Source of the DNA: Spirochaetia bacterium
GTDB lineage: Bacteria > Spirochaetota > Spirochaetia > DSM-2461
Assembly (NCBI GenBank): GCA_963666985.2
Contig: CAXXIA010000003.1
Span: 1 to 64,000, forward strand
Direction of reading: 5' to 3'
Length of the DNA stretch: 64,000 nucleotides
Below the pieces are notes generated by a model that was given only the letters and a program-made list of their open reading frames with translations, searched no databases and was not told where the DNA came from. The position numbers and the translations under genes are program-made. This document shows positions 4,577 through 18,065 of this stretch, piece after piece; position 1 is the first letter of the stretch, and each line of letters opens with the position of its first letter.

Positions 4577-6346
4577 TCAATCCTCCGCTGAGGATTCCTT
4601 CTCTTCACAATCCGCGGGGAAAGAAATCATAAACGAACAGCCATATCCAAGACTGCTTTCCACCCAGACGCGGCCTCCGTGCTTTAAAGCGATATGCTTC
4701 ACGATGGCCAGGCCCAAACCGGTTCCTCCGAGTTCCCTGCTTCTGGCCTTATCCACCCGATAAAATCGTTCGAAAATCCGGGAAAGTTCACTCTCGGGAA
4801 GTCCGGGACCGTTATCCTTAACGACAAAAATAATTTCCGTTCCGACAATACGGGCTGATAACGTAATCATGGAACCTTCGGGACTGTATTTTACGGCATT
4901 ATCCAAGAGATTAACCAAAGCCTGCTCGACCAGAATGGGATGCACGCAGCATTCCAGACCGTCCGCCACTTCCATGCTCATGCGGATCTTCTTCGATTCG
5001 GCTTTTATGGACACCGTCGCAACCGCATCATCAAAGAGCCATCGAACGTCCACCCGTTCCCTCGGCAGGGAAGTTTCACCTTCTTCCAGCCGTGAGAGCG
5101 TCATGAGGTCGCCGATAATGAATCCCAATCGTTCCGCCTGCCTTCTGATAATACTTAAAAAGCCGTCCCGACGTTCTTTATCAAGATTCTCCGCCCGCTG
5201 AAGGGTTTCGACGAACCCGAGAATGGAGGTTATGGGAGTGCGCAGTTCATGCGAAACATTGGCCACGAAATCCTTCCGCATCATTTCAAGCTGGGTAATT
5301 CTTGTCACGTCGTTCATCACCAAAAGGCATCCGGACCGAATAAGCACGGCGTGAACCTGAAGAAAGAACGGACCGGAATCCCGATCCAGCCTGACAAGCG
5401 ATTCCTCTTCACCGCCTTCGGCCGCCAGTCTTTTGGCTATATCGTATAATTCCGGGCTGCGAAAAACATGCAGGAAACCCTTGCCCACACATTTCTCATC
5501 GTTCGTTCCCGCCAGCTCCACGGCGGCGGGATTCACCTGAAGAATATTCAAATCCGTATCCAGAAGAACAACCGGTGCGGTCATGCCTTCCAGCATCGAA
5601 CGCAAAACGGTCTGCCGATCTTCAATGTCGCGAAACGTGTCGCGCAGCTGACGCCCCATTCGGTTTATGGAAGCGGAAAGTTCATCGGCTTCACGGAATC
5701 CGGAAAGAATCAGGGCCTTGGAAAAATCACCGCGGGAATAATCACCGACAACCGATTGAACGGACTTCAGAAGGTTGCTGATTCTTTTGGCGGCTAAAAC
5801 GCTGATTAATGCGGAGATAAGGATAAGCGCGGCGGCAAAGGCCGTCAGAGCCTTAACGGAGCGATCCAGCCCGTCGCGAAGTCCCTGAACCGTTCGAGCA
5901 ACACGGAAAACAAGATTCACCGATGGATCAAAATAAGCGGTATAAATAAACAGTTCACCGCCCAAAGTCTCGCTCCGGCGAACGGAAGAGCCCTGTCCTT
6001 TGGTAAGAGCCGCTCGAATTTCCGGACGATTTCCATGATCCGACATCACTTCCGCGTCCTCATGGGTATCGGCAAGGACGGTTCCGTCGGATTCGATGAT
6101 TGTTATCCGATACCCCAAAGTTTCCGGAAGAACCGAAAGAAACCGATCGGCGGCGGCTTCGCGGTCATCTTCATCCTGATAAAAAGCCGCCAAGGTCCGA
6201 ACCAATTCCCACTGACGGGATTCCGCATCTTTAAACGCATAGGATTGAAGCGAACGGACTCCGAAAATTCCGCTTGCCATGACGGCCGCGCCTACGAGCA
6301 GGAGAAGAGTTATAAATAATTGAAAAAAAACGGATTGCTTTTTCAG
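4577..6346 (-). CDS. phoR: PhoR-like sensor histidine kinase (TM-HAMP-PAS-HisKA-HATPase)
   Basis: DFVANVSHELRTP H-box, NLLDNAVKYS, DNGPG, RIFERFYRVDKARSRELGGTGLGLAIVKH. The frame stays open from ATG 6280 up to a CTG at 6346 with GGAG 8 nt upstream, which completes the first TM helix. Confidence 0.85.
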   Translation of the reverse strand: MKKQSVFFQLFITLLLLVGAAVMASGIFGVRSLQSYAFKDAESRQWELVRTLAAFYQDEDDREAAADRFLSVLPETLGYRITIIESDGTVLADTHEDAEVMSDHGNRPEIRAALTKGQGSSVRRSETLGGELFIYTAYFDPSVNLVFRVARTVQGLRDGLDRSVKALTAFAAALILISALISVLAAKRISNLLKSVQSVVGDYSRGDFSKALILSGFREADELSASINRMGRQLRDTFRDIEDRQTVLRSMLEGMTAPVVLLDTDLNILQVNPAAVELAGTNDEKCVGKGFLHVFRSPELYDIAKRLAAEGGEEESLVRLDRDSGPFFLQVHAVLIRSGCLLVMNDVTRITQLEMMRKDFVANVSHELRTPITSILGFVETLQRAENLDKERRDGFLSIIRRQAERLGFIIGDLMTLSRLEEGETSLPRERVDVRWLFDDAVATVSIKAESKKIRMSMEVADGLECCVHPILVEQALVNLLDNAVKYSPEGSMITLSARIVGTEIIFVVKDNGPGLPESELSRIFERFYRVDKARSRELGGTGLGLAIVKHIALKHGGRVWVESSLGYGCSFMISFPADCEEKESSAED

Positions 6347-6349
6347 GGG

Positions 6350-6494
6350 CTATTCTCCGCGCAGGCGATATCCGTTTTCAAGGTTATTCGGCAGCGCCAT
6401 CGTCAATTTCTATTCTCCGCGCAGGCGATATCCGTTTTCAAGGTTATTCGGCAGCGCCATCGTCAATTTCTATTCTCCGCGCATGCGATATCCG
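6350..6494. repeat. 60-bp tandem repeat (2 perfect copies plus a partial third copy formed by the 3' end of the response regulator)
   Basis: CTATTCTCCGCGCAGGCGATATCCGTTTTCAAGGTTATTCGGCAGCGCCATCGTCAATTT at 6350-6409 and 6410-6469; 25-bp near-copy at 6470-6494. Confidence 0.97.
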
Positions 6495-7288: not shown

Positions 7289-9520
7289 CTAATAAGTAAA
7301 ACGACGTAATTCCATATCCAGAATATCCAGGGACTGGACATTTTTCTCCCCGAGAGTGGTTATCTCCGAAAGCGCTTTTGTAATATCCCCAATCCCGGTA
7401 CTGATTTCCGCAATAGCGTCGTGACTCTGGCGAGAGAGATCGGCAACCTTTGTAAGGGAAGCATTGGATTTCTCCGATCTTCTGTCGATGTTCTGTGAAG
7501 AATCCCGAACGGCGGCGCTGGCTCCGACAAGGCTGCTCAAGGCCTCCGTAATCTGGTCCGTTCCTCTTCCGAGTTCCACCAGAGAATTCATAATCTCCGT
7601 AAGAGCTTCCGAAACGCTGGTTGAATCCACCACAATCTTGGAAATGGAATCTCCGGTCTGTCTGGATCTGTCGGCGGTTCCGCCGATCTTATTGACAATT
7701 TCCCTTACCGAATCTCCGATCTGTTTGGCGTTGCTGCCCGTTGATTCGGCAAGTTTGCGGATTTCATCCGCGACTACCGCGAAACCGCGGCCGGCCTCGC
7801 CGGCATGGGCGGCTTCGATGGCGGCATTCATGGCCAAAAGATTGATCTGCGAAGAAATGCCGTCGATAACCGTAACAACATCCTGGATGGAATCGGCTGA
7901 AGAGGCGATTCCATCGATATCGGACAGGGTTGTTTCCATTTGTTCCTCACCGGCACGCGCCATCGAAGCCAAAGTTTCAGCCATGACCGACCGATCTTTC
8001 GCCAATGAAGAAATACTTTTAATGGACGCGACCATTTCCTCAACCGCTGCCGACGATTCCTCTACGGCCGAGGCTTCTTCCGACGCTTGAGCATTGACGT
8101 TCTGCACTTCACCGCTTACTTCACGGATTTCATCACGAACGGATTCGGAAAGTTCGGCAAGAGTGTTCGACTGGTTGTCTATGGAAACTATGGTGGCCTG
8201 AATTTCATCCAAAGCGGAGGAAATCTCTTCAACATTGGAAGCCAATGTCTCGGCAACTTCATGCCCCTGTTTAGTGGAAGTATGAATGTTTTTCATAATT
8301 CCCTGCAGGGTTTCGGCAAAAGTATTGAATCCTTTGGCCAGCCGGCCTGTTTCATCCGAAGACTTGATGGCTATTCGCTGAGTTAAATCGGCATCTCCTT
8401 GGGATATTTCTTCCAAACGTTCGGTAGCGGCCAACAGCGCTTTGGTAACCAGAGAAATAATTACCAGAGCAACTCCGGAAGCCACAAGTCCGAAAATCAA
8501 TCCGACAATCAAAACCAGAAAGCCGATTTCCTTCGATTCTTTTATAAGTTCAGACTCATAAACGGCGTATGTTATGATCCAATCCCGTTCCGGAAAATAT
8601 TTAACAAAACCGATTTTCTTGAAGAATTTATTTTCCGGTTCTCCCGGTTTTGTCCACATATACTCAACTCGGCCATTCTCAATCTCAAACATATATTGAG
8701 TTAAATCCTGCCCTGTAACCTTATCTTTCAATACAAAAGATTGTCCGACCCAGTCCTGATCAACATAAGCGATATATGTGGAATTACGGTCCTGAATATA
8801 AGGATAAGCACCCATAAAACTTTGCTTGTAGAGATTCTTATTCATTTCACTCAGCATGGCCGCTTCATATTCGGCTATATCCTTATCAATATCGTCAATG
8901 TAAACACCGGTGCCGATGGCCCATTCCCAAGGTTCAAAATATTTAATACAGGATTTCTTAGCCGAATCTTCAGTTTCACCAGGTTTGGGATAGTAGTAAT
9001 CATAAAAGAAATACTCATTGGCCATTGCACCCTTAACAAAGTCACGGCCGATGTAAGAACCTTTACTATCCTGATAATCGTACCGTGATGTTCCTTCGAT
9101 TGCCGGATTAGGCGGAAAAAGCACATTAACAACATCTTTGGAATCAATCCAAAAATAGCCGTCATTGCCATATGAAAAATTGCGAAGGGCTTCTTTGGCT
9201 TCCCGCTGAGCCGCGTACCTTGAAAGTTCACCGCTTAATTCTTTTTGATGATAAAAATCGGCAATACTGACGGCACCGTCAGTCAGATGCCCCAGCCTCC
9301 GTTCCGTATTCGCGATTTCCAATTCTTTGGCTTTTTGGGAAGACTCATGGAACTGATGCACAAGGGAGTATATCTGTTCCAGACTGCTGTTACTGAAATC
9401 CTCAAAATTGTTCAAAACACTTTTTTTGCTCATTTGCCCTGTGATAAGAGCGAGCACCACTGTAATCACCAAAAATAATACAAGAATCGGAATAAACACT
9501 TTCCACCGTATCGATTTCAT
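7289..9520 (-). CDS. Methyl-accepting chemotaxis protein with Cache sensor domains
   Basis: TM, Cache ([21 protein letters not shown]), TM, HAMP (DETGRLA), signalling tip [35 protein letters not shown]. Confidence 0.95.
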
Positions 9521-9752
9521 GCACTTCTCCTCAAAGATGTCGCTGGAGACTCTTTGCTCTACGCGCCGAACAGCAACGCTGATCGGCTGTTATGAATTTG
9601 ATTCGGAGATCTTGCCGCAGGAACACGGAATGCTTAATCGGCAGATACTCCGCATCACTCTTTCTCATTCCCGCCGAATACCGTATTCGGACCAAAATCA
9701 CATTTAAAGAGCCTCATTTTTAAGTTTTATTCTTTTTCGCAATTATGCAAAC

Positions 9753-11978
9753 TCAAACGGTAAATCTCCTCATTTCCTCTTCAAGGGAATCCATGGCCTC
9801 GGTATTCGTCGTACTTAATCCGACGATAATTTTCAAAGATGTTCCAATTTCATTAAGAGACTGCCGGATTTCCTCGATACCGTGATGATTCAGCTGAGAA
9901 AGTTCGGCCACCTCCGTCAATGAAGTTCGGCTGTCGTCCGCCTGAGCGCCAATCTTCACCGAAGACTCCCGAACGGCCTGACTGGCCAAATTCAGATGTC
10001 CAAGCGCCGAGGTTATCTGGTCTGTTCCCTGACCCATCTCTTCCAGAGCATTTAGGATTTCCTTCAGTGTTGTCGAAACATCGGCGCTGCCGGTAACAAT
10101 TTCACCGATGGATTCACCGGTCTGTCTCGATCGATCCGCCGTATGGCTAATTTTATCGATAATTTCTCCTACGGATTCGGTAATCCTCTTTGCGTTGCTT
10201 CCCGTCGATTCGGCCAACTTCCGGATTTCATCCGCCACCACGGCGAATCCCCTTCCGGCGTCTCCGGCATGTGCGGCCTCAATGGCCGCATTCATGGCCA
10301 AAAGGTTTATACGGGATGAAATGCCGTCAATAACCGTCACCACATCCTTAATGGAATCCGCGGACTCGGATATCCCTTTGATGTCGGACATGGTGGTGTG
10401 CATTTGTTCCTCACCCTTACGGGCAAGACCGGCAAGCAGTTCGGCCATACTCGACCTTTCGGAGGCCATTCTGGAAATGTTTCTGATGGATGCGATCATC
10501 TCTTCAACGGCCGCCGATGATTCTTCCACGGCCGATGATTCTTCGACCGTTTGGTTGTTCACGGTCTCCAAAGCATCCCCGATAACATTCATGGAATCGT
10601 TTGTATTTTCCGCAAGAGAAATAAGACTTGAAGACTGTTTGTCGATCGTGGTGATGGTGGAGATAATCAATTCAAGAGACGCCGATATTTGCTCAACATT
10701 CGACGAGAGTGTTTCGGCCACTTCGCGTCCCTGCCCCGAGGATTCCTGAACATGCATCACAATCCCCCGGAGAGAGGAGGTAAAGGCATTAAAACTCTCG
10801 GCCAGCTGTCCCACTTCGTCTTGGGAATTCACAATGATGGATTGGGTAAGATCCGCGTCACCTTCGGCAATCTCCCGCAGTCGTTCGTTGGTTTTTTTCA
10901 AACTCTTAACGATGAGATTAACCGCCAGTAAGATCACAACCGCCACGGCGATCGCGGCAACAATCCCGACAATGACAATGTTTCGCGTCATTTTCGTAAT
11001 CATTGCATTAAGGTCGCCCTCATAAATTGTATAAACCATCACCCAATCGCGCGGCTCATACAGCATGGTGAATCCCTTTTTCAGGAACAGTTTATTGGGA
11101 TTCTCTCCCGGCTTGATATAGTAATAATCAATAGGACCGGTGCCGTTGGCGAAAAACTTATCGGTGAGATCTCTTGTCACATCATTGTCATTGAGATATG
11201 TGCCGACCATGTCCGGATTGTTGTGAGCAATCATCATACTGTCTTTGGCAATAATGGCGGGATAAGAACCGAGAAAAGATTCTTTAAAAAGGGTCTGATT
11301 CATGGAGGCAATCTGATTTTTCTCCCACTCGGCGACGGCCGCGTCGATATCGTCGATATATGTTCCGGTTCCGACGGTCCATCCCCAGGGATCGAAACGG
11401 CGGCTGGTTCCCATTTTCGGCATAGCCTCGGTCTGACCGGGACGCGGAAAGTAATATTCCAGATCGAAATATTTATTTTCTTTAGCTCCATCCACCAGCA
11501 TATGGATAAAAGCTTGTCCGTTTTCATCCTTCAATTCGCCGCGGTAAGAGCCTTCAATATCGGAGTCGGGAGGATTAAGGACATTGATATACTCATCATT
11601 ATCAATGAAGTAATAATTCCCATCGCTGTATCGCAGAAGACGTATCCCTTCTTTTGCTTCGGCCATGGCCGCTTGAGGAGAAAGGATTCCCTGCATTTGA
11701 CGCGAATAGGCATTTTCAAGAACACCGAAGGCAACATCGAGAAGATCCCGCTGGGACTGACGTGTTTTATCCAGCATTTGTATGCGCAGCTGCTGAGAGG
11801 CCAAATCGAACTGTTCTATCTGACTGTAAACCTGATTTATGTAGACATTCGAAAAACTTTCAAAATCCTCTTCAATCTTTGATCGATTCAAGGATGTCAT
11901 TTGCCAAGTCATGATTACAATCGCCAGAAGAACAACACCTAAAACCGGAAAGAACAACTTCCATTGAATAGATTTCAT
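9753..11978 (-). CDS. Methyl-accepting chemotaxis protein with Cache sensor domains (tandem paralogue)
   Basis: Same architecture: [56 protein letters not shown]. Confidence 0.95.
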   Translation of the reverse strand: MKSIQWKLFFPVLGVVLLAIVIMTWQMTSLNRSKIEEDFESFSNVYINQVYSQIEQFDLASQQLRIQMLDKTRQSQRDLLDVAFGVLENAYSRQMQGILSPQAAMAEAKEGIRLLRYSDGNYYFIDNDEYINVLNPPDSDIEGSYRGELKDENGQAFIHMLVDGAKENKYFDLEYYFPRPGQTEAMPKMGTSRRFDPWGWTVGTGTYIDDIDAAVAEWEKNQIASMNQTLFKESFLGSYPAIIAKDSMMIAHNNPDMVGTYLNDNDVTRDLTDKFFANGTGPIDYYYIKPGENPNKLFLKKGFTMLYEPRDWVMVYTIYEGDLNAMITKMTRNIVIVGIVAAIAVAVVILLAVNLIVKSLKKTNERLREIAEGDADLTQSIIVNSQDEVGQLAESFNAFTSSLRGIVMHVQESSGQGREVAETLSSNVEQISASLELIISTITTIDKQSSSLISLAENTNDSMNVIGDALETVNNQTVEESSAVEESSAAVEEMIASIRNISRMASERSSMAELLAGLARKGEEQMHTTMSDIKGISESADSIKDVVTVIDGISSRINLLAMNAAIEAAHAGDAGRGFAVVADEIRKLAESTGSNAKRITESVGEIIDKISHTADRSRQTGESIGEIVTGSADVSTTLKEILNALEEMGQGTDQITSALGHLNLASQAVRESSVKIGAQADDSRTSLTEVAELSQLNHHGIEEIRQSLNEIGTSLKIIVGLSTTNTEAMDSLEEEMRRFTV

Positions 11979-12231: not shown

Positions 12232-12315
12232 GCGGCAGTGGTGGAATTGGTAGACACGCTAGCTTGAGGGGCTAGTGATAGCAATATCGTGGAGGTTCAA
12301 GTCCTCTCTGCCGCA
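12232..12315 (+). tRNA. tRNA-Leu(GAG)
   Basis: Acceptor stem GCGGCAG/CTGCCGC plus A, D arm GTGGAATTGGTAGACAC, anticodon arm CTAGC-TTGAGGG-GCTAG, long variable arm, T arm GGAGG-TTCAAGT-CCTCT. CCA not encoded. Confidence 0.97.
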
Positions 12316-12533
12316 AGAAGGCGATCAGCCCAATGGGTTGGTCGCCTTTTTTGATTCTTAAAAAGGACTTGAAGCGGAATCCCGACGCGACCGAGCAGGG
12401 AGCGTAAATCGACACAATGTCGATTTAGGGATGGAGACGGCTCGGAGGACTAAGGCAGGAAGCCGAAGTCCGGAGGACAAGTCCTCTCTGCCGCAAGAAA
12501 AGCGAGCGCCCATCGTGGCGGTCGCTTTTTTTT
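12298..12533 (+). repeat. tRNA-linked repeat: 22-bp direct repeat of the tRNA 3' end at 180-bp distance, each copy followed by a terminator
   Basis: CAAGTCCTCTCTGCCGCAAGAA at 12298-12319 and 12478-12499; second hairpin AAAAGCGAGCGCC-CATCGT-GGCGGTCGCTTTT plus T run. Confidence 0.85.
12318..12352 (+). terminator. Rho-independent terminator after tRNA-Leu
   Basis: AAGGCGATCAGCCC-AAT-GGGTTGGTCGCCTT followed by a T run. Confidence 0.85.
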
Positions 12534-12660: not shown

Positions 12661-13821
12661 CTAACCGACCAAGCCGGTCACTTCATCAACGATAGCTCGG
12701 ATAAACGCATCAAAATCGGGCACATCAGCCTTCGGCACACGAAATCCAATCGCGCCTTCATGCCCCCCGCCGTTTTCAATTCCAAGAAGATTAATGACAC
12801 TCCGGAGATCCAAATCCTTGAAAAATTGACTCCGCCGCATTCGCATCTGGATAAAATTCGAGCGTTTAGGATGATCGTAATAAACGACCAAACTGAGATA
12901 ACCGCTTTCTTCAGCCAATAAATTGGCGACATATTTTGCAACCGTTACAACGACTTCCGAATCATAAGTCTTGTTTATGAAACGGGATACATTCTCATCC
13001 AATGCTATCCAGGAAATACGTCCCTGTGTTTTTTTGTGCTCAAGAAAATCCCTGCAGCAATGTTCTTCATCGGCCGAAAGCTTTTCAAGCTCATTGAGAA
13101 TATCTTCAATACTTGAAAAATTGCCCGAATCCTTTTCAGTCTTTTCAATAAGCATTTCATTGAAAAGGCGACTGAAATACCGGTAATACCGCTTCTCTCT
13201 ACGGGACTTTAAGAATTGTCCCATTTTCGAGTCTCCGACGATTCCGGTAACGATGGAAAGTACAAAATTCCGAGTGAAGATTTCACCCGTCAGAGACTCA
13301 CGAAGGATTCTCTTTTTCTTTGAGAGCCGCAGGGCCAAATAGCCGATGAGTTCACACGTGGATGAGGCCTCGTCCACCAAACGGTATCCTTCCTCTCCGA
13401 TATAAAAACCGTCGGCTTCCAAATGATGATCCACTTCCATTACAAGGACATGATCCTTATCCATAATCGGCCGTAAATCTTCAAGGAATTCGAGCATTTC
13501 GGGTTTCGGAGTATCGAAAGCGATAACCGTATCGTATTCATCGCCGATATCCTGAGGTTTTTCCAGAACCCTGATTGAATTATATTTACAGATGCTTAAA
13601 AGATAAGGAAATTTCTCATGATTTTCCTTTGCGAAAACAATACTGGGCGTTTTGCCGAATTTCACAATCAGCAGACTGAATGCCACCATGGAGGCCACGC
13701 AGTCCTCATCGGGGTTATGATGACCGATCAATAAAAAAGATTCCCTCTTCATCATCGTTTCGATGAAAGTGTTAACGATTTTCTTTCTCGTATGCCGGTT
13801 TGGAATACGGATTTTCTTCAT
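12661..13821 (-). CDS. DHH/DHHA1-family phosphoesterase (NrnA-like)
   Basis: GHHNPDEDC, AFDT, EVDHH, GIVGDS, RMRR and GGGHEGAIG motifs. Confidence 0.9.
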   Translation of the reverse strand: MKKIRIPNRHTRKKIVNTFIETMMKRESFLLIGHHNPDEDCVASMVAFSLLIVKFGKTPSIVFAKENHEKFPYLLSICKYNSIRVLEKPQDIGDEYDTVIAFDTPKPEMLEFLEDLRPIMDKDHVLVMEVDHHLEADGFYIGEEGYRLVDEASSTCELIGYLALRLSKKKRILRESLTGEIFTRNFVLSIVTGIVGDSKMGQFLKSRREKRYYRYFSRLFNEMLIEKTEKDSGNFSSIEDILNELEKLSADEEHCCRDFLEHKKTQGRISWIALDENVSRFINKTYDSEVVVTVAKYVANLLAEESGYLSLVVYYDHPKRSNFIQMRMRRSQFFKDLDLRSVINLLGIENGGGHEGAIGFRVPKADVPDFDAFIRAIVDEVTGLVG

Positions 13822-14801
13822 TTTTCTGTCCCGGTTCCGTACAAAAAGGCTCGGTCACGGCCGGCTTCTTTCGCGGAATAAAGAGCCTTATCGGCACTTC
13901 CCAGCAATTCCTCTACGGTTTCACCGTGGATTGGGCATACGGCGATACCGAAGCTGACGCTTACGTGGCTGAACGTGCCTTTTCTGTCATTAAGAATATT
14001 CAATTCACGTATATTCTGACCCACTTCACGACAACATTCCAGAGATTCCCGACCATCCTTTCCGGGGAGGATAAAAGCGAACTCATCTCCGCCGTATCGG
14101 GCCGGGATATCCTCCTTATGAGAAAAAAAGTCTTTGAATACAGACGCCACGGCCAGTATAACCTCATCGCCGACATCTTCCCCGTATTCCTCGTTCAATT
14201 TCCCGAAACGATCAATATCCAGCAAAACCAAAGAAATCCCGGGGCCCCCCATTATCGAGTCCAGTACGGCATTTTCAACGGATTCATCAAAAAAACGTCG
14301 ATTATAGAGTCCGGTAGGTTCATCGGTAACGGCTCTGATCCGAGCCTTTTCACCCCACATGACCATGTCCGAAAGAAACGCACCGGTATTCCGGAGGCGG
14401 CTTACGGCCGTATGCAGCATACGCCGCATGATTTTATTGGCGGCGACCGGTTCCCGAAGCATTAATTCCGCAAATCCATCTCCATCCATCGAAAGCAATT
14501 CGCAATCCTTCAGAGTCCGGCAGGTGGCCGACCGAACATCCTTTTCCAGAATGGACATTTCGCCGAAAAAACTGCCTTCTCCAATCCTTGAGACCTCCAG
14601 TTCATCACCGGTTTCGGTTTTCACGGAAACCGAAACCGTTCCGTCGAGAACAATGTACATTTGGCGGCCCTCATCACCTTCTCGAAACAGAACCCATCCG
14701 TCCGGAATGAAATGTTTTTTCATATGAAGACGAACACGTTCCACCTCATCGGGAGAAAGAAGAGAGAAGATATCCAGATTCCTCAAAGCATCGGGAGTCA
14801 T
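13818..14801 (-). CDS. cNMP-binding domain + GGDEF domain protein (GGDEF motif intact)
   Basis: LFREGDEG..FFGEMSIL..RSAT cNMP cassette; DEPTGLYNRR, LDID, RYGGDEF, ADKALYSAKEAGRDR. Confidence 0.92.
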   Translation of the reverse strand: MTPDALRNLDIFSLLSPDEVERVRLHMKKHFIPDGWVLFREGDEGRQMYIVLDGTVSVSVKTETGDELEVSRIGEGSFFGEMSILEKDVRSATCRTLKDCELLSMDGDGFAELMLREPVAANKIMRRMLHTAVSRLRNTGAFLSDMVMWGEKARIRAVTDEPTGLYNRRFFDESVENAVLDSIMGGPGISLVLLDIDRFGKLNEEYGEDVGDEVILAVASVFKDFFSHKEDIPARYGGDEFAFILPGKDGRESLECCREVGQNIRELNILNDRKGTFSHVSVSFGIAVCPIHGETVEELLGSADKALYSAKEAGRDRAFLYGTGTEK

Positions 14802-15829
14802 GTGTTTTCCAAATCCTCGGGGAAAAGAATGCGATTCCCTCCCCGCCGCCGTCCCTCCATCACGAGTTCATGCGCTTTGTTCGCAAGCAACACGGCATCA
14901 TGACCGTGCTCCGGAGAGAGAACCAAACCGAAACTCACCGACAGTGCGATTTCCTTCCCGCGCAAAATGGAAGACAAATCCAAACCGCGAAGAAAGTCTC
15001 CGGTTTCTTCGGCGGTACGGCGAAGCTCGGATTGATCCGCCCCGAGACGAATAATCGCATTCTCATTTCCCATGTACCGAAACAATAAATCCGAATTCGA
15101 TACGAAACTCTTGAGCCCATCGGCAATAAATCTCAGCGCTTTATCGCCCGCTTCATGACCATATGTGTCATTGATTTCTTTAAAATTATCCGGTTTATAC
15201 ATCAGAAGTCCAACGGAATCATCCGTTTTTTGAAGAACTTCTGTTAAGGTTTCTTCGAAAAATGTCTTATTGTGAAGTCCGGTAAGTTTATCAACATAAA
15301 CCTGCCGCTTCAGTTCGTTTACCAGCGGTGAATTTTCCTTAACAAGCGCATTCACACCGCGAATACGCGCCGAAATCTGCCCCAGAAAAGTATAAAGCAG
15401 CCGCGCGTACAATCCCGGATAGCTCCGGGAGAGATGATCAAGACCGTCTTCTCCCAGCGGGAAGACCACAAGAGAAGAAGATCCTTCCGTATACGCGTCG
15501 GCGTTCCGGTTTTGTCCCGTGAAAAAATCCAAATCTCCGAAGATGTCGCCCGAAAGAAAGCGGGCGATTTCCACCGAACGGCCTTCATCATCGTTCTTCC
15601 GAATAACAACAGAACCTTTCCGGACGAAATACAGTCTTTCGGAAGACTCACCCGCGGCGAAAATCCGTTCGTCGGCTTTTAAATCAATCATACCGCTTAA
15701 GAGTCCGATGACGTTCAAATCATCTTCGGTACAGCGGGAAAAAATCTTGGCGCTCCGAAGAACCGAAGAAATCTCATCCCGAACATCGGGCGGCAGCGGT
15801 TCCGTCGGTCTTTCGGATTGGATTCTCAT
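14798..15829 (-). CDS. cNMP-binding domain + degenerate GGDEF domain protein
   Basis: IFAAGE..LYFVRKG..IFGDL..RNA cNMP cassette; DKLTGLHNK and FKEINDTYGHEAGD kept, but YKPD replaces xDID and RYMGNEN replaces RxGGDEF. Start uncertain (15829, 15841 or 15865). Confidence 0.88.
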   Translation of the reverse strand: MRIQSERPTEPLPPDVRDEISSVLRSAKIFSRCTEDDLNVIGLLSGMIDLKADERIFAAGESSERLYFVRKGSVVIRKNDDEGRSVEIARFLSGDIFGDLDFFTGQNRNADAYTEGSSSLVVFPLGEDGLDHLSRSYPGLYARLLYTFLGQISARIRGVNALVKENSPLVNELKRQVYVDKLTGLHNKTFFEETLTEVLQKTDDSVGLLMYKPDNFKEINDTYGHEAGDKALRFIADGLKSFVSNSDLLFRYMGNENAIIRLGADQSELRRTAEETGDFLRGLDLSSILRGKEIALSVSFGLVLSPEHGHDAVLLANKAHELVMEGRRRGGNRILFPEDLENT

Positions 15830-15932
15830 AAATTCAATCATCTCGAAAAAGTTCAAGGAGAACAAGCTGGTGATTTCGGCCGTTTTTCTCTTTATGAATC
15901 TAAAGTTTACGATTGATGAGGTAAACGCTCTC

Positions 15933-16439
15933 TTATTCTGCTTCTCCCGTAGGAATGGTCTTTACCATTTCAAGAATCTCAGCGGCATTCTCCGGAGCGT
16001 AATTATAGGCCCAGCGTTCTTCGGATATGTGAAATCCGAACCGTTCATACGGTCCTCTTCCGCCTTTTTTCGCGAAAATATTCATCCAGGGTTTGTCAAT
16101 GACGATACACACGGCAACGACATTGCCCAAGGAGTCCTGAGCGAACCAGATCATGTCGTACGGACCATGGGGAGATTTGAAAATAACCCGAGTCAGTTCG
16201 TCTCCAAACGCATTAACGTCCAAAGAGAGAACGGCATCCCTTAAGTGCTTGCAGCTCCTTCCGAGATCGCCGACGGGCCTATGAGCACGGCGTTCGATAA
16301 AATCAGGACATGTGCAGGTATAGCGGTGAAGGTTGATGGCATAGCGTCCGCCTCCGGATCGGCTTTCGACGGTGATATCGCGATCGTATTCCGGTCCGAA
16401 GGGAGCCATTTCAAGCAGCGCGGGTTTCCAAAGGCTCAT
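15933..16439 (-). CDS. Small SWIM-type zinc-finger protein
   Basis: YAINLHRYTCTCPDF-x15-CKH matches the SWIM CxC...CxH pattern. Confidence 0.7.
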   Translation of the reverse strand: MSLWKPALLEMAPFGPEYDRDITVESRSGGGRYAINLHRYTCTCPDFIERRAHRPVGDLGRSCKHLRDAVLSLDVNAFGDELTRVIFKSPHGPYDMIWFAQDSLGNVVAVCIVIDKPWMNIFAKKGGRGPYERFGFHISEERWAYNYAPENAAEILEMVKTIPTGEAE

Positions 16440-16530: not shown

Positions 16531-17394
16531 TTATTCTTCCTCGGCGGCATCATCCGGCGGAAGGTTCGACGCCCGTTCGGTAATTCGCGAAGAGAATTTG
16601 AATTTGGGAGTCATGTACGCATCTTTCGCGGGAACCAGGATTTCTTCGCCCGTAGAGGGATTTCTGCCCATTCGCGCCTTTCTGGCCGGTTTTTTCACCA
16701 GAGTCAGACGCCCGAGTTTCCCGAAGGAAACCGTATGTCCCAAAAGCATACCGGTTTCCAGAAGTACGGCGTAATCGTCGAGCAAAGCGGATACGGTCTT
16801 TTGGGTAAGTCCGGAGGCTTCGGCGAGATACTTCGTCATCGACTTTTTATCAAATTGGGCCGGAGCATCTCCGCCGGGATACGTGAACTTTCGGTTGAGA
16901 TGAACAAAGGAATTGGTCAGGAACACCATTGCTTCCCGGATACGCTGCTCCTGTTCTTCCGAACTGAGACCGGATGGAAGAATCGCAATGCGATAAATAG
17001 CGGATGTATTTTTTAAAGGAGTACCGGAAAAGGAGGCTTTTCTTCCGACGGCCGGCGACTCGATCAGCTCAACACCTTCATTTCTTAAAACGTTGGGAAC
17101 ATCGGATCTCATTTTTATGCTCGCGTATTCCATTCTCCTCGGAGATCCGGGGCCGAGGGCCACCAGGGAACCGGAATAGGTTGCGAGAATCATTCCTCTG
17201 GGTTCGTCGGCTTCTACCTTTTCAACGAATTTCATACCGATAAGATCGATCTGCTCTTCAAAAAGCCTGTTTTTCTCCATCCAGAGATCTTCGAGCCGAT
17301 TCAGGGCGCCCGACTCCTTCGCCCAAGCCTCCTCGGACGATGCCACGAGTTCTTCGAGATGGCCGGCCACTTCCGGCGGTAAAGAACGCTCCAT
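16531..17394 (-). CDS. Unknown N-terminal domain fused to a C-terminal HU/IHF-like DNA-binding domain
   Basis: C-terminal KKSMTKYLAEASGLTQK..VSFGKLGRL..ARMGRNPSTGEEILVPAK..PKFKFS; SD AAGGAGGA before ATG 17394. Confidence 0.8.
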   Translation of the reverse strand: MERSLPPEVAGHLEELVASSEEAWAKESGALNRLEDLWMEKNRLFEEQIDLIGMKFVEKVEADEPRGMILATYSGSLVALGPGSPRRMEYASIKMRSDVPNVLRNEGVELIESPAVGRKASFSGTPLKNTSAIYRIAILPSGLSSEEQEQRIREAMVFLTNSFVHLNRKFTYPGGDAPAQFDKKSMTKYLAEASGLTQKTVSALLDDYAVLLETGMLLGHTVSFGKLGRLTLVKKPARKARMGRNPSTGEEILVPAKDAYMTPKFKFSSRITERASNLPPDDAAEEE

Positions 17395-17513
17395 CCTCAA
17401 TCCTCCTTTATTTCAAACGATCATCAGTATACACCGGGTATGTGTTATTTCCCAAACGAAGCGGACCGGCCGTTCGCCCGAGCCGAAAGACATTCCATCT
17501 TCAAAGTCCGCGT

Positions 17514-18065
17514 TCAGTTCAGCTTATACAAAGCCCGAACAAGCGCCGTTTTATGTCTCCCTACGTAATCGATCAGCCGTTCTTGAGAATCCTTGCTTTG
17601 AGAATCCGCTCCGGCGAGCTCCAGAACATCATCCACTTTCCGATACCAGAGATAATGCGGTTCCAAAGGTTTCGCCGGCGGGGACTGTCTGAGGCGGACA
17701 TTCAGTTCTTCATCGAGCTGATTATGATTGGCGCTGCCGATAATATAGCGAATATCACCGTTCTCACCGACGTAAAGAACCATGCGCCTGAATCCGACTC
17801 CCATGGCGTCGTCACTCCGGAATCCCTTTACCTGAATATCCAGCGATCCCAGACGCAGTTCCCACCCTTCTTCCCTGCGGGCTTTTCGAAAAGCGACGAT
17901 ATCCTCCTTAATCTCCCTGGTTCTATCAACATCCATCCTGGCCTCCTGCAGTTCGGTACGCCATTGACGAAGCTGACGTTCGTATCTCGGCATCAATCCG
18001 GCCCGAGATACAAATCGATCGGTGTTGGACAGGAGCACCCACACATCGGCGAACCTTTCACCCAT
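17514..18065 (-). CDS. Hypothetical protein
   Basis: 183-aa ORF co-oriented with the HU fusion, globular-looking composition; no motif recognised. Confidence 0.6.
   Translation of the reverse strand: MGERFADVWVLLSNTDRFVSRAGLMPRYERQLRQWRTELQEARMDVDRTREIKEDIVAFRKARREEGWELRLGSLDIQVKGFRSDDAMGVGFRRMVLYVGENGDIRYIIGSANHNQLDEELNVRLRQSPPAKPLEPHYLWYRKVDDVLELAGADSQSKDSQERLIDYVGRHKTALVRALYKLN

Follow-up and report, generated by a model that had tools for sequence, protein, structure and literature searches.

Introduction

The locus studied here raises the question of whether two adjacent GGDEF proteins, each of which lacks catalytic residues that the other keeps, could work together as a single enzyme. 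It lies in the window, that is, the whole stretch of 64,000 nucleotides that was analysed (positions 1 to 64,000 of contig CAXXIA010000003.1 of a Spirochaetia bacterium, assembly GCA_963666985.2), and consists of three consecutive minus-strand genes, called A, B and DHH here. Comparison of sequences suggested that A and B form a one-site heterodimer, the two halves of an asymmetric GGDEF nucleotidyltransferase, with a probability of about 75%. The two proteins appeared to be broken in opposite ways, and each probably functions only when paired with the other, in a dimer with a single active site. The module itself is real and widely conserved in Spirochaetota, as a variant of the GGDEF family. 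Its genes and motifs are listed below, with residues compared to those of the diguanylate cyclase DgcR (cNMP, cyclic mononucleotide).

14798..15829, minus strand: gene A, 343 amino acids from the ATG at 15829; cNMP-GGDEF protein with a dead metal site and an apparently degenerate cNMP pocket; putative nucleophile (acceptor) half
15143..15196, minus strand: A residues 212-229, with K212 at the place of the metal-binding Asp (DgcR D174)
15059..15073, minus strand: A signature MGNEN where GGDEF is expected
13818..14801, minus strand: gene B, 327 amino acids; cNMP-GGDEF protein with an intact metal/triphosphate site and cNMP pocket; putative electrophile (donor) half
14166..14219, minus strand: B residues 195-212, with D195, N203 and D212 retained and G200, E204 and E208 at the places of DgcR K179, D183 and H187
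14079..14093, minus strand: B GGDEF motif, residues 237-241; the upstream RxxD I-site is absent in the window copy
13857..13895, minus strand: B ADKALYSAKEAGR, residues 303-315
12661..13821, minus strand: DHH/DHHA1 phosphoesterase, 386 amino acids, from a subfamily in Spirochaetota that is divergent

Results

Reciprocal residue losses in A and B

The three genes were coupled via ATGA overlaps of stop and start codons, as an earlier note on this DNA had described. Gene A also had an alternative longer reading frame from a TTG start at 15865. In Pfam, A and B each matched cNMP_binding and GGDEF, and the third gene matched DHH above the cut-off and DHHA1 weakly (E 0.0013, below the cut-off). The motifs previously quoted for the two proteins were all found in the translations, namely KPDNFKEINDTYGHEAGD, MGNEN and AHELVMEGRRRGG in A and DIDRFGKLNEEYGEDVGD, GGDEF and ADKALYSAKEAGR in B, and the PleD numbering used for them agreed with a PDB alignment at an offset of one. 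Residues K217, N220, D221, H225 and D229 of A were equivalent to K179, N182, D183, H187 and D191 of DgcR, respectively. In B, D304 and Y308 were equivalent to D282 and Y286, and K311 and R315 within ADKALYSAKEAGR were the γ-phosphate residues.

To count the residues, 94 A and 89 B sequences were placed on DgcR numbering; the spacings in DgcR were those of B apart from a one-residue insertion, and the A set included at least one B-like cross-match (G397). The metal-binding D174 was replaced by Lys in all 94 A sequences, in which K179, D183, H187 and D191 were each retained without exception and the guanine-reading N182 (N220 of A) was kept in 89. D282 was found in none of them, Y286 and the γ-phosphate R293 in one each, K289 was mostly Arg, and R147 was variable (49/94). 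At the GGDEF-equivalent motif of A, the third residue was Asn in 67 and Asp in 27 sequences, and the fourth was Glu in 89. B showed the reciprocal pattern. D174 and the third and fourth acids of GGDEF were retained in 89/89, D282, R147 and K289 in 88/89 each and Y286 in 83/89, so that the metal ligands, GGDEF, K289/R293, D282/Y286 and R147 were each conserved in 83-89 of 89; K179 was present in only 3, D183 in 8 and H187 in 36 sequences, all three jointly in none, and window B has Gly, Glu and Glu in their place. Set against a canonical diguanylate cyclase, A thus lacks the metal ligands (D174/GG[D/E]EF), D282/Y286 and K289/R293 and has the guanine readers and K179/D183/H187, and B lacks K179/D183/H187 and has the metal ligands, GGDEF, D282/Y286, K289/R293 and R147. 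The losses reported earlier for the window proteins are conserved in orthologues across Spirochaetota, and the pattern was the same in sets filtered to less than 60% identity (53 A and 43 B sequences). The guanine-reading Asn and Asp, also claimed for both proteins, were confirmed as N220/D229 in window A and N203/D212 in window B. In a quick tree built from 106 subsampled rows, A formed one clade and B another, with support values in the Shimodaira-Hasegawa-like approximate likelihood ratio test (SH-aLRT) of 98 and 85.

These losses were exceptional within the genome. All 26 of its other GG[D/E]E domains kept the Lys, Asn and Asp of FKxxNDxxGH, and 25 kept the His; Lys at the metal Asp was found in A alone and loss of the Lys, Asp and His of this motif in B alone. 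The Lys (K179), which is Gly in window B, was also kept in 75/75 control GGDEF domains, most of which were picked by an N-D-x-x-G-H pattern and so over-represent N, D and H; the own-genome census is the unbiased control.

Residues split between A and B match a cross-subunit model

In DgcR, D174, E217 and E218 bind Mg, N182 and D191 bind guanine and K289 and R293 bind the γ-phosphate (PMC8041772). In the modelled competent dimer of the same study, K179 lies above the incoming α-phosphate, D183-Y286 and H187-D282 form cross-subunit pairs, and R147 reaches the opposing guanine (PMC8041772); work on GacA backs the cross-dimer Arg and the fourth Glu (PMC6456294). The earlier note had offered a cross-subunit role of Lys, Asp and His as its own reading of dimer models, and this reading matches the DgcR Michaelis model (PMC8041772). 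The present analysis adds that the partners on the other side, D282, Y286 and R147, are kept in B, and that D282 and Y286 are lost in A, in which R147 is variable. Because the split residues are the cross-subunit pairs of this model, with B D304 and Y308 as the partners of A H225 and D221, an A:B dimer would hold one complete site. As judged from the alignments, the predicted contacts for a nucleotide on A attacking a nucleotide on B are all conserved, and the mirror set is broken.

The following mechanism is proposed. A and B would pair through their cNMP C-helices. B would bind Mg and GTP and present the α-phosphate, and A would hold a second guanine nucleotide metal-free, with Lys/Arg at the phosphates, and present its 3'-OH. 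By analogy with the DgcR model, A K217 may stabilise the transition state, and the interface may be closed by the pairs A D221-B Y308 and A H225-B D304 together with B R168. With the symmetric second site dead, one bond would be made per binding event and the first product would be pppGpG. A cyclic mononucleotide, cAMP or cGMP, would gate the reaction from the intact pocket of B, and the linked DHH protein would most likely degrade the product locally. There are precedents for such a division of labour in Cas10, in which a metal-free Palm1 holds the triphosphate of the nucleophile with lysines (PMC11734703), and in the SAM-AMP Cas10, which has an altered acceptor site and its own DHH nuclease (PMC10600005).

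The sensor domains differed between the two halves. We take the phosphate-binding cassette of cNMP domains to be GE...RS/TA, a motif that is also visible in PKA alignments. It was near-invariant in B (G80 85/85, E81 82/85, R90 85/85, S91 84/85); window A reads GDLD...RNA, with the Arg in 51/85 and an acid at position 101 in 65/85 A sequences. The N-terminal cNMP domain noted in both proteins was present in each; the pocket of B was intact and that of A appeared degenerate. The spacing from the helix Arg to DxLT was 25 residues in both A and B, and the genome encoded five clear class III cyclase-like genes and a weak one as possible cNMP sources.

AlphaFold2 models of a natural A-B fusion from alignments of 23 and 64 rows (predicted local distance difference test 82.7 and 83.3, predicted template modelling score 0.49 in both) contained the domains and two 40-residue helices and left their packing unresolved; Foldseek with the first model gave single-domain matches only. 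A mutual information analysis between A and B (123 pairs, effective number 65), which was underpowered, did not find the in-register coiled-coil band to be enriched (mean z 0.27 vs 0.14), and its second-ranked pair, N220-Y308, drew its signal from one lineage. These two residues were jointly kept in 80 and jointly lost in 5 of 85 pairs. All five pairs came from one lineage, so the losses amount to about one event; they are a weak sign that the guanine Asn of A and the Tyr of B may face each other. In this sub-lineage (L057, L063, L216, L217 and L222), the guanine Asn of A was Val or Cys, the Tyr of B was lost and the B motif was [S/A]GDE, and the DHH subfamily was not found in the three of its genomes that were re-searched; its enzymes possibly use a different acceptor nucleotide. 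Separately, 9 of 85 B sequences (L045, L054, L139, L230-L234 and L248) had their own guanine readers altered (N to S/G or D to N), so the donor base may differ there.

Distribution, gene order and natural fusions

A search seeded with the DHH protein covered 41 genomes. Among the 19 regions fetched from them, 17 had the order A-B-DHH, one reached a contig end before A, and one was a weak secondary match without the module. A phylum sample of 401 genomes was searched with profiles of DHH (E<=1e-40) and A (E<=1e-48), which matched in 112 and 104 genomes, respectively, and together in 87; since these searches scored 4-5 candidates per genome, absences are soft unless re-searched, and related genomes are not independent. 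An A match was present in 83 of the 93 genomes with the strong DHH subfamily. A full B was adjacent or fused to A in 86 of 93 A loci, so the A-B order proposed from the window is conserved. Among the seven remaining loci, B was partial in L053, where the contig ends, and shortened in L241; two others were solo copies whose genomes have a B or a second A elsewhere.

Natural fusions lent further support to the pairing of A with B. A single-chain A-B fusion was found in 20/20 long-frame loci fetched, and full-length A-B fusions made up 47 of 65 protein matches, with a linker of 14 residues in 62/64. A frameshift artefact was considered as their source and rejected, given the constant-length linker across many independent records; record P0027, which resembles an artefact, was excluded from the fusion evidence. 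B was fused to DHH in 14 sequences. Treponema denticola carries the pair as AAS13243.1 (A) and AAS13242.1 (B); databases, these two records included, annotate the genes as 'GGDEF protein' or 'diguanylate cyclase', and the T. pallidum protein O83781 belongs to the DHH subfamily. A related-locus search with the A alignment gave at least nine Spirochaetota-type orthologues among 80 loci, among the matches listed, and supplied the 75 control GGDEF domains; the same kind of search seeded with the DHH protein gave no loci; protein records at the related loci carry a Spirochaetota label.

Evidence for and against the one-site heterodimer

Several points weigh against the proposed scheme. The residue roles derive from a manually built DgcR model and not from a solved competent dimer, and the general base is disputed between two studies (PMC6456294, PMC8041772). 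In the 64-row fusion alignment, B carried conservative substitutes for the lost residues (Arg in 63, Glu in 61 and His in 62), so some activity of a B homodimer is conceivable. Linkage of the DHH gene was not obligatory, as it adjoined A in only 29 of 93 A loci. A was absent from 10/10 re-searched DHH-only genomes (of the 93 strong-DHH genomes), as was the DHH subfamily from 10/10 re-searched A-only genomes (of 17). Finally, an RxxD c-di-GMP (cyclic di-GMP) site was found in 56/89 B sequences and about 33/94 A sequences, at least two of the A rows being mis-anchored, and in 21 of 31 own-genome motif hits; its retention points to binding of c-di-GMP.

The substitutes in B raise the alternative that B works as a homodimer, as an ordinary diguanylate cyclase activated by cNMP, with A as a catalytically dead regulator or a sensor of GTP or c-di-GMP. 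The metal site, GGDEF and triphosphate residues are all intact in B, many B sequences have R/E/H in place of K/D/H, and there is precedent for degenerate GGDEF domains as sensors, for example in FimX (PMC8846402). This alternative appears improbable, because the Lys that is Gly in window B was kept in every other own-genome domain and every control domain, and because a pure regulator would not need an invariant Lys, Asp and His in A that match the invariant Asp and Tyr of B.

The B-DHH fusions suggest another alternative, in which A:B is a non-catalytic cNMP/GTP sensor that controls the DHH hydrolase, comparable to the degenerate GGDEF domain in GdpP. The fusions mirror the layout of GdpP (PMC9779919), and a diadenylate cyclase was present in 5/5 genomes tested. 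We consider it quite improbable, since one full catalytic set is conserved over A and B together, no DHH gene adjoins A in 64 of 93 loci, and the subfamily is absent from some A-bearing genomes. The one-site heterodimer is the preferred reading.

The product of the reaction

An enzyme with one active site need not stop at a linear product, and it could also make oligomers of the Cas10 type. The linear end product proposed in the earlier note could not be upheld as established: pppGpG is a substrate of WspR, cGAS and DncV cyclise at one site, and most B sequences carry RxxD. The one-site heterodimer might instead be a two-step c-di-GMP synthase, in which pppGpG is released, rebinds in the flipped orientation (triphosphate at B, 3' G at A) and is then closed into a ring. 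Purified pppGpG is indeed accepted and cyclised by WspR (PMC2270323), and cGAS and DncV, each with a single site, rotate the intermediate and then cyclise it (PMC6456294). Guanine readers are present in both halves, the missing γ-phosphate Arg of A would suit an internal phosphodiester, RxxD was found in 20/20 fused B halves and 16/20 fused A halves, and the DHH profile aligned over the greatest length, among PDB chains, with cyclic-dinucleotide phosphodiesterases. Against this, RxxD is absent from A and B of the window, the genome encodes 26 canonical GGDEF domains besides, the invariant Lys at the metal site of A, like the linked DHH subfamily, hints at a channel of its own, and a comparison of mCpol with Cas10 links asymmetric sites with stepwise, longer products (PMC12657230). 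We regard c-di-GMP formation by re-binding as possible but doubtful, a weight that it keeps because of the WspR and cGAS/DncV precedents and the retention of RxxD.

A non-canonical end product was weighted up because of the invariant Lys in A, the linked DHH subfamily and the Cas10 precedents, and its chance comes fairly close to even without reaching it. Among such products, linear pppGpG/pGpG is itself unlikely, a longer or cyclic oligo-G of the Cas10 kind is a distant prospect, and a product from another acceptor is slightly more distant still. In its full form, the tentative proposal, which we hold at somewhat less than an even chance, is that Spirochaetota, T. denticola included, possess a cNMP-gated, Cas10-like asymmetric GGDEF enzyme, split or single-chain, which makes, in place of c-di-GMP, linear pppGpG/pGpG, an oligoguanylate that is longer or cyclic, or a G-N conjugate, the product being removed by the enzyme's own DHH subfamily.

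The DHH protein

The catalytic residues of the DHH protein were intact (H34, D38, D40, D103, DHH at 131-133, D197, QxRxR at 325-329 and GGGH at 351-354), and the DHH and GGGH motifs were present in 61/61 subfamily sequences. It scored 27.5 bits in NCBIfam against the NrnA cut-off of 350, and all scores for named subfamilies were far below cut-off. NF011110, which we take to be a GdpP-like family, gave 14 bits against a cut-off of 707. In the PDB, the DHH profile gave its longest alignments with 5xt3, 5xsi and 9n0l, chains that are named cyclic-dinucleotide phosphodiesterase, at E-values similar to that of TM1595, and the N-domain was about as similar to the cyclic-dinucleotide phosphodiesterase GdpP as to NrnA or TM1595. 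The DHHA1 strand reads QxRxR, with Q325 in 60/61 sequences (register set by eye), and NrnA has RxRxR (PMC9779919). DHH/DHHA1 enzymes of this type can be specific for pGpG, as PggH is (PMC8861645). Compared with NrnA, TM1595 and PggH, with which it shares the DHH and GGGH motifs and the metal ligands (PMC9779919, PMC8861645), the protein is about 60 amino acids longer and has QxRxR instead of RxRxR.

The description of this protein as a dedicated eraser was overstated, since the subfamily occurs without A/B, A/B occurs without DHH, and the N-domain is also GdpP-like. Its main substrate might be c-di-AMP, pApA or nanoRNA and not the product of A:B, a matter independent of the synthase question. 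Two single-contig genomes (G141 and G119) have DHH without A/B, both with a diadenylate cyclase. Stand-alone copies of the subfamily also lie near a CHASE2-class III nucleotide cyclase at 13 loci (L142, L144, L173, L175, L177, L179-L184, L187 and L189), and these copies, with the diadenylate cyclase found in every genome tested, make turnover of c-di-AMP or of dinucleotides in general a live alternative. On the other side stand the A match in 83 of the 93 strong-subfamily genomes (related genomes again not being independent), the 14 B-DHH fusions and two further NrnA-sized DHH proteins in the genome, so that this substrate assignment is plausible, yet clearly below even odds. Nineteen distant DHH matches, with E-values from 1e-41 to 1e-60, were assigned to another subfamily and excluded; the ones inspected have no GH motif. 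L160-L165 form a distant DHH-like group without the GH motif; a GAF-HD protein was common to five of these loci, and L164 also neighbours a GGDEF gene.

Neighbouring genes and DNA context

Two further minus-strand genes lie upstream of A:

15933-16439, minus strand: 168-amino-acid protein with a CxC...CxH motif (SWIM-like by eye) and no Pfam match
16531-17400, minus strand: HU/IHF-like domain fused to about 180 amino acids of unknown sequence

Both adjoin A in L032 and L047 only. A 183-amino-acid protein at 17514-18065 (minus strand), which had no Pfam or NCBIfam match, was found near A in four relatives (L033, L035-L037). On the other side, the plus strand carries at 12232-12351 a tRNA-Leu(GAG) and, after it, a terminator-like hairpin of 17 pairs, which converge on the 3' end of the operon. 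The Rfam scan of the window gave one tRNA and nothing else, thus no riboswitch, the promoter/terminator scan was at chance level, and the segment 3' of the DHH gene was not a dispersed repeat. Beyond the tRNA are two tandem genes for proteins of about 740 amino acids (7289-11978, minus strand), the second a Cache-HAMP-MCP chemoreceptor in Pfam and the first similar by eye. A direct repeat of about 60 bp at about 6340-6470, near the end of a response-regulator gene, was suggested by a repeated 20 amino acids in a spurious plus-strand open reading frame.

Discussion

The C1 and C2 domains of mammalian adenylyl cyclase are duplicated cyclase halves with one competent site, and they belong to another family with another reaction, the intramolecular formation of cNMP. 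Canonical homodimeric diguanylate cyclases such as DgcR (PMC8041772), PleD and WspR share with A and B the GGDEF fold, the DxLT hinge, the Asn/Asp guanine readers and a coiled-coil input; the difference is that A and B split the catalytic residues over two paralogues, so that neither chain is complete and only one site would form. XC_0249 of Xanthomonas campestris has the same cNMP-GGDEF architecture and a linked nucleotide cyclase, but it is reported as a single intact protein that makes c-di-GMP, with neither a degenerate partner nor a DHH protein described (PMC3770947). Cas10 resembles A:B in its pseudo-symmetric Palm1/Palm2, one metal site, lysine-held nucleophile site and fusions, a likeness of working only (PMC11734703, PMC10600005), and the SAM-AMP Cas10 also has a DHH-family eraser, the nuclease NrN (PMC10600005). 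A and B differ from it as predicted guanine-specific, cNMP-gated GGDEF proteins. The Cas10 palm2 match in Pfam was below cut-off (23.3 vs 27), A and B showed no type III CRISPR complex with a GGDD palm, and no Cas family was noticed among the 28 neighbour clusters listed, 12 proteins of which were scanned with Pfam. GdpP (PAS-GGDEF*-DHH-DHHA1; PMC9779919) shares with the B-DHH fusions the order of sensor, GGDEF, DHH and DHHA1 and a DTxKPE motif in the DHH domain. The fusions differ in their intact GGDEF, a cNMP domain instead of PAS, the lack of a membrane anchor, the partner A, and scores far under the NCBIfam cut-off; they are thus cNMP-intact GGDEF-DHH proteins and do not have the layout of a transmembrane segment, PAS, degenerate GGDEF, DHH and DHHA1.

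In published descriptions, a GGDEF enzyme is a symmetric homodimer that has two half-sites. In our literature search, which was judged from listings and the beginnings of abstracts and had subscription papers outside its reach, no account of the A/B pair or of a complementary GGDEF heterodimer was found. If the present reading is true, this natural residue-splitting pair would be the first obligate one-site GGDEF heterodimer in the literature searched. The pair directly probes the disputed model of cross-subunit catalysis, since its residues have been separated by evolution into a donor set and an acceptor set. If its product is non-canonical, it would be a new messenger and would bear on whether linear dinucleotides are purposely made signals, and Spirochaetota, with Treponema denticola among them, would then have a new channel for a nucleotide messenger.

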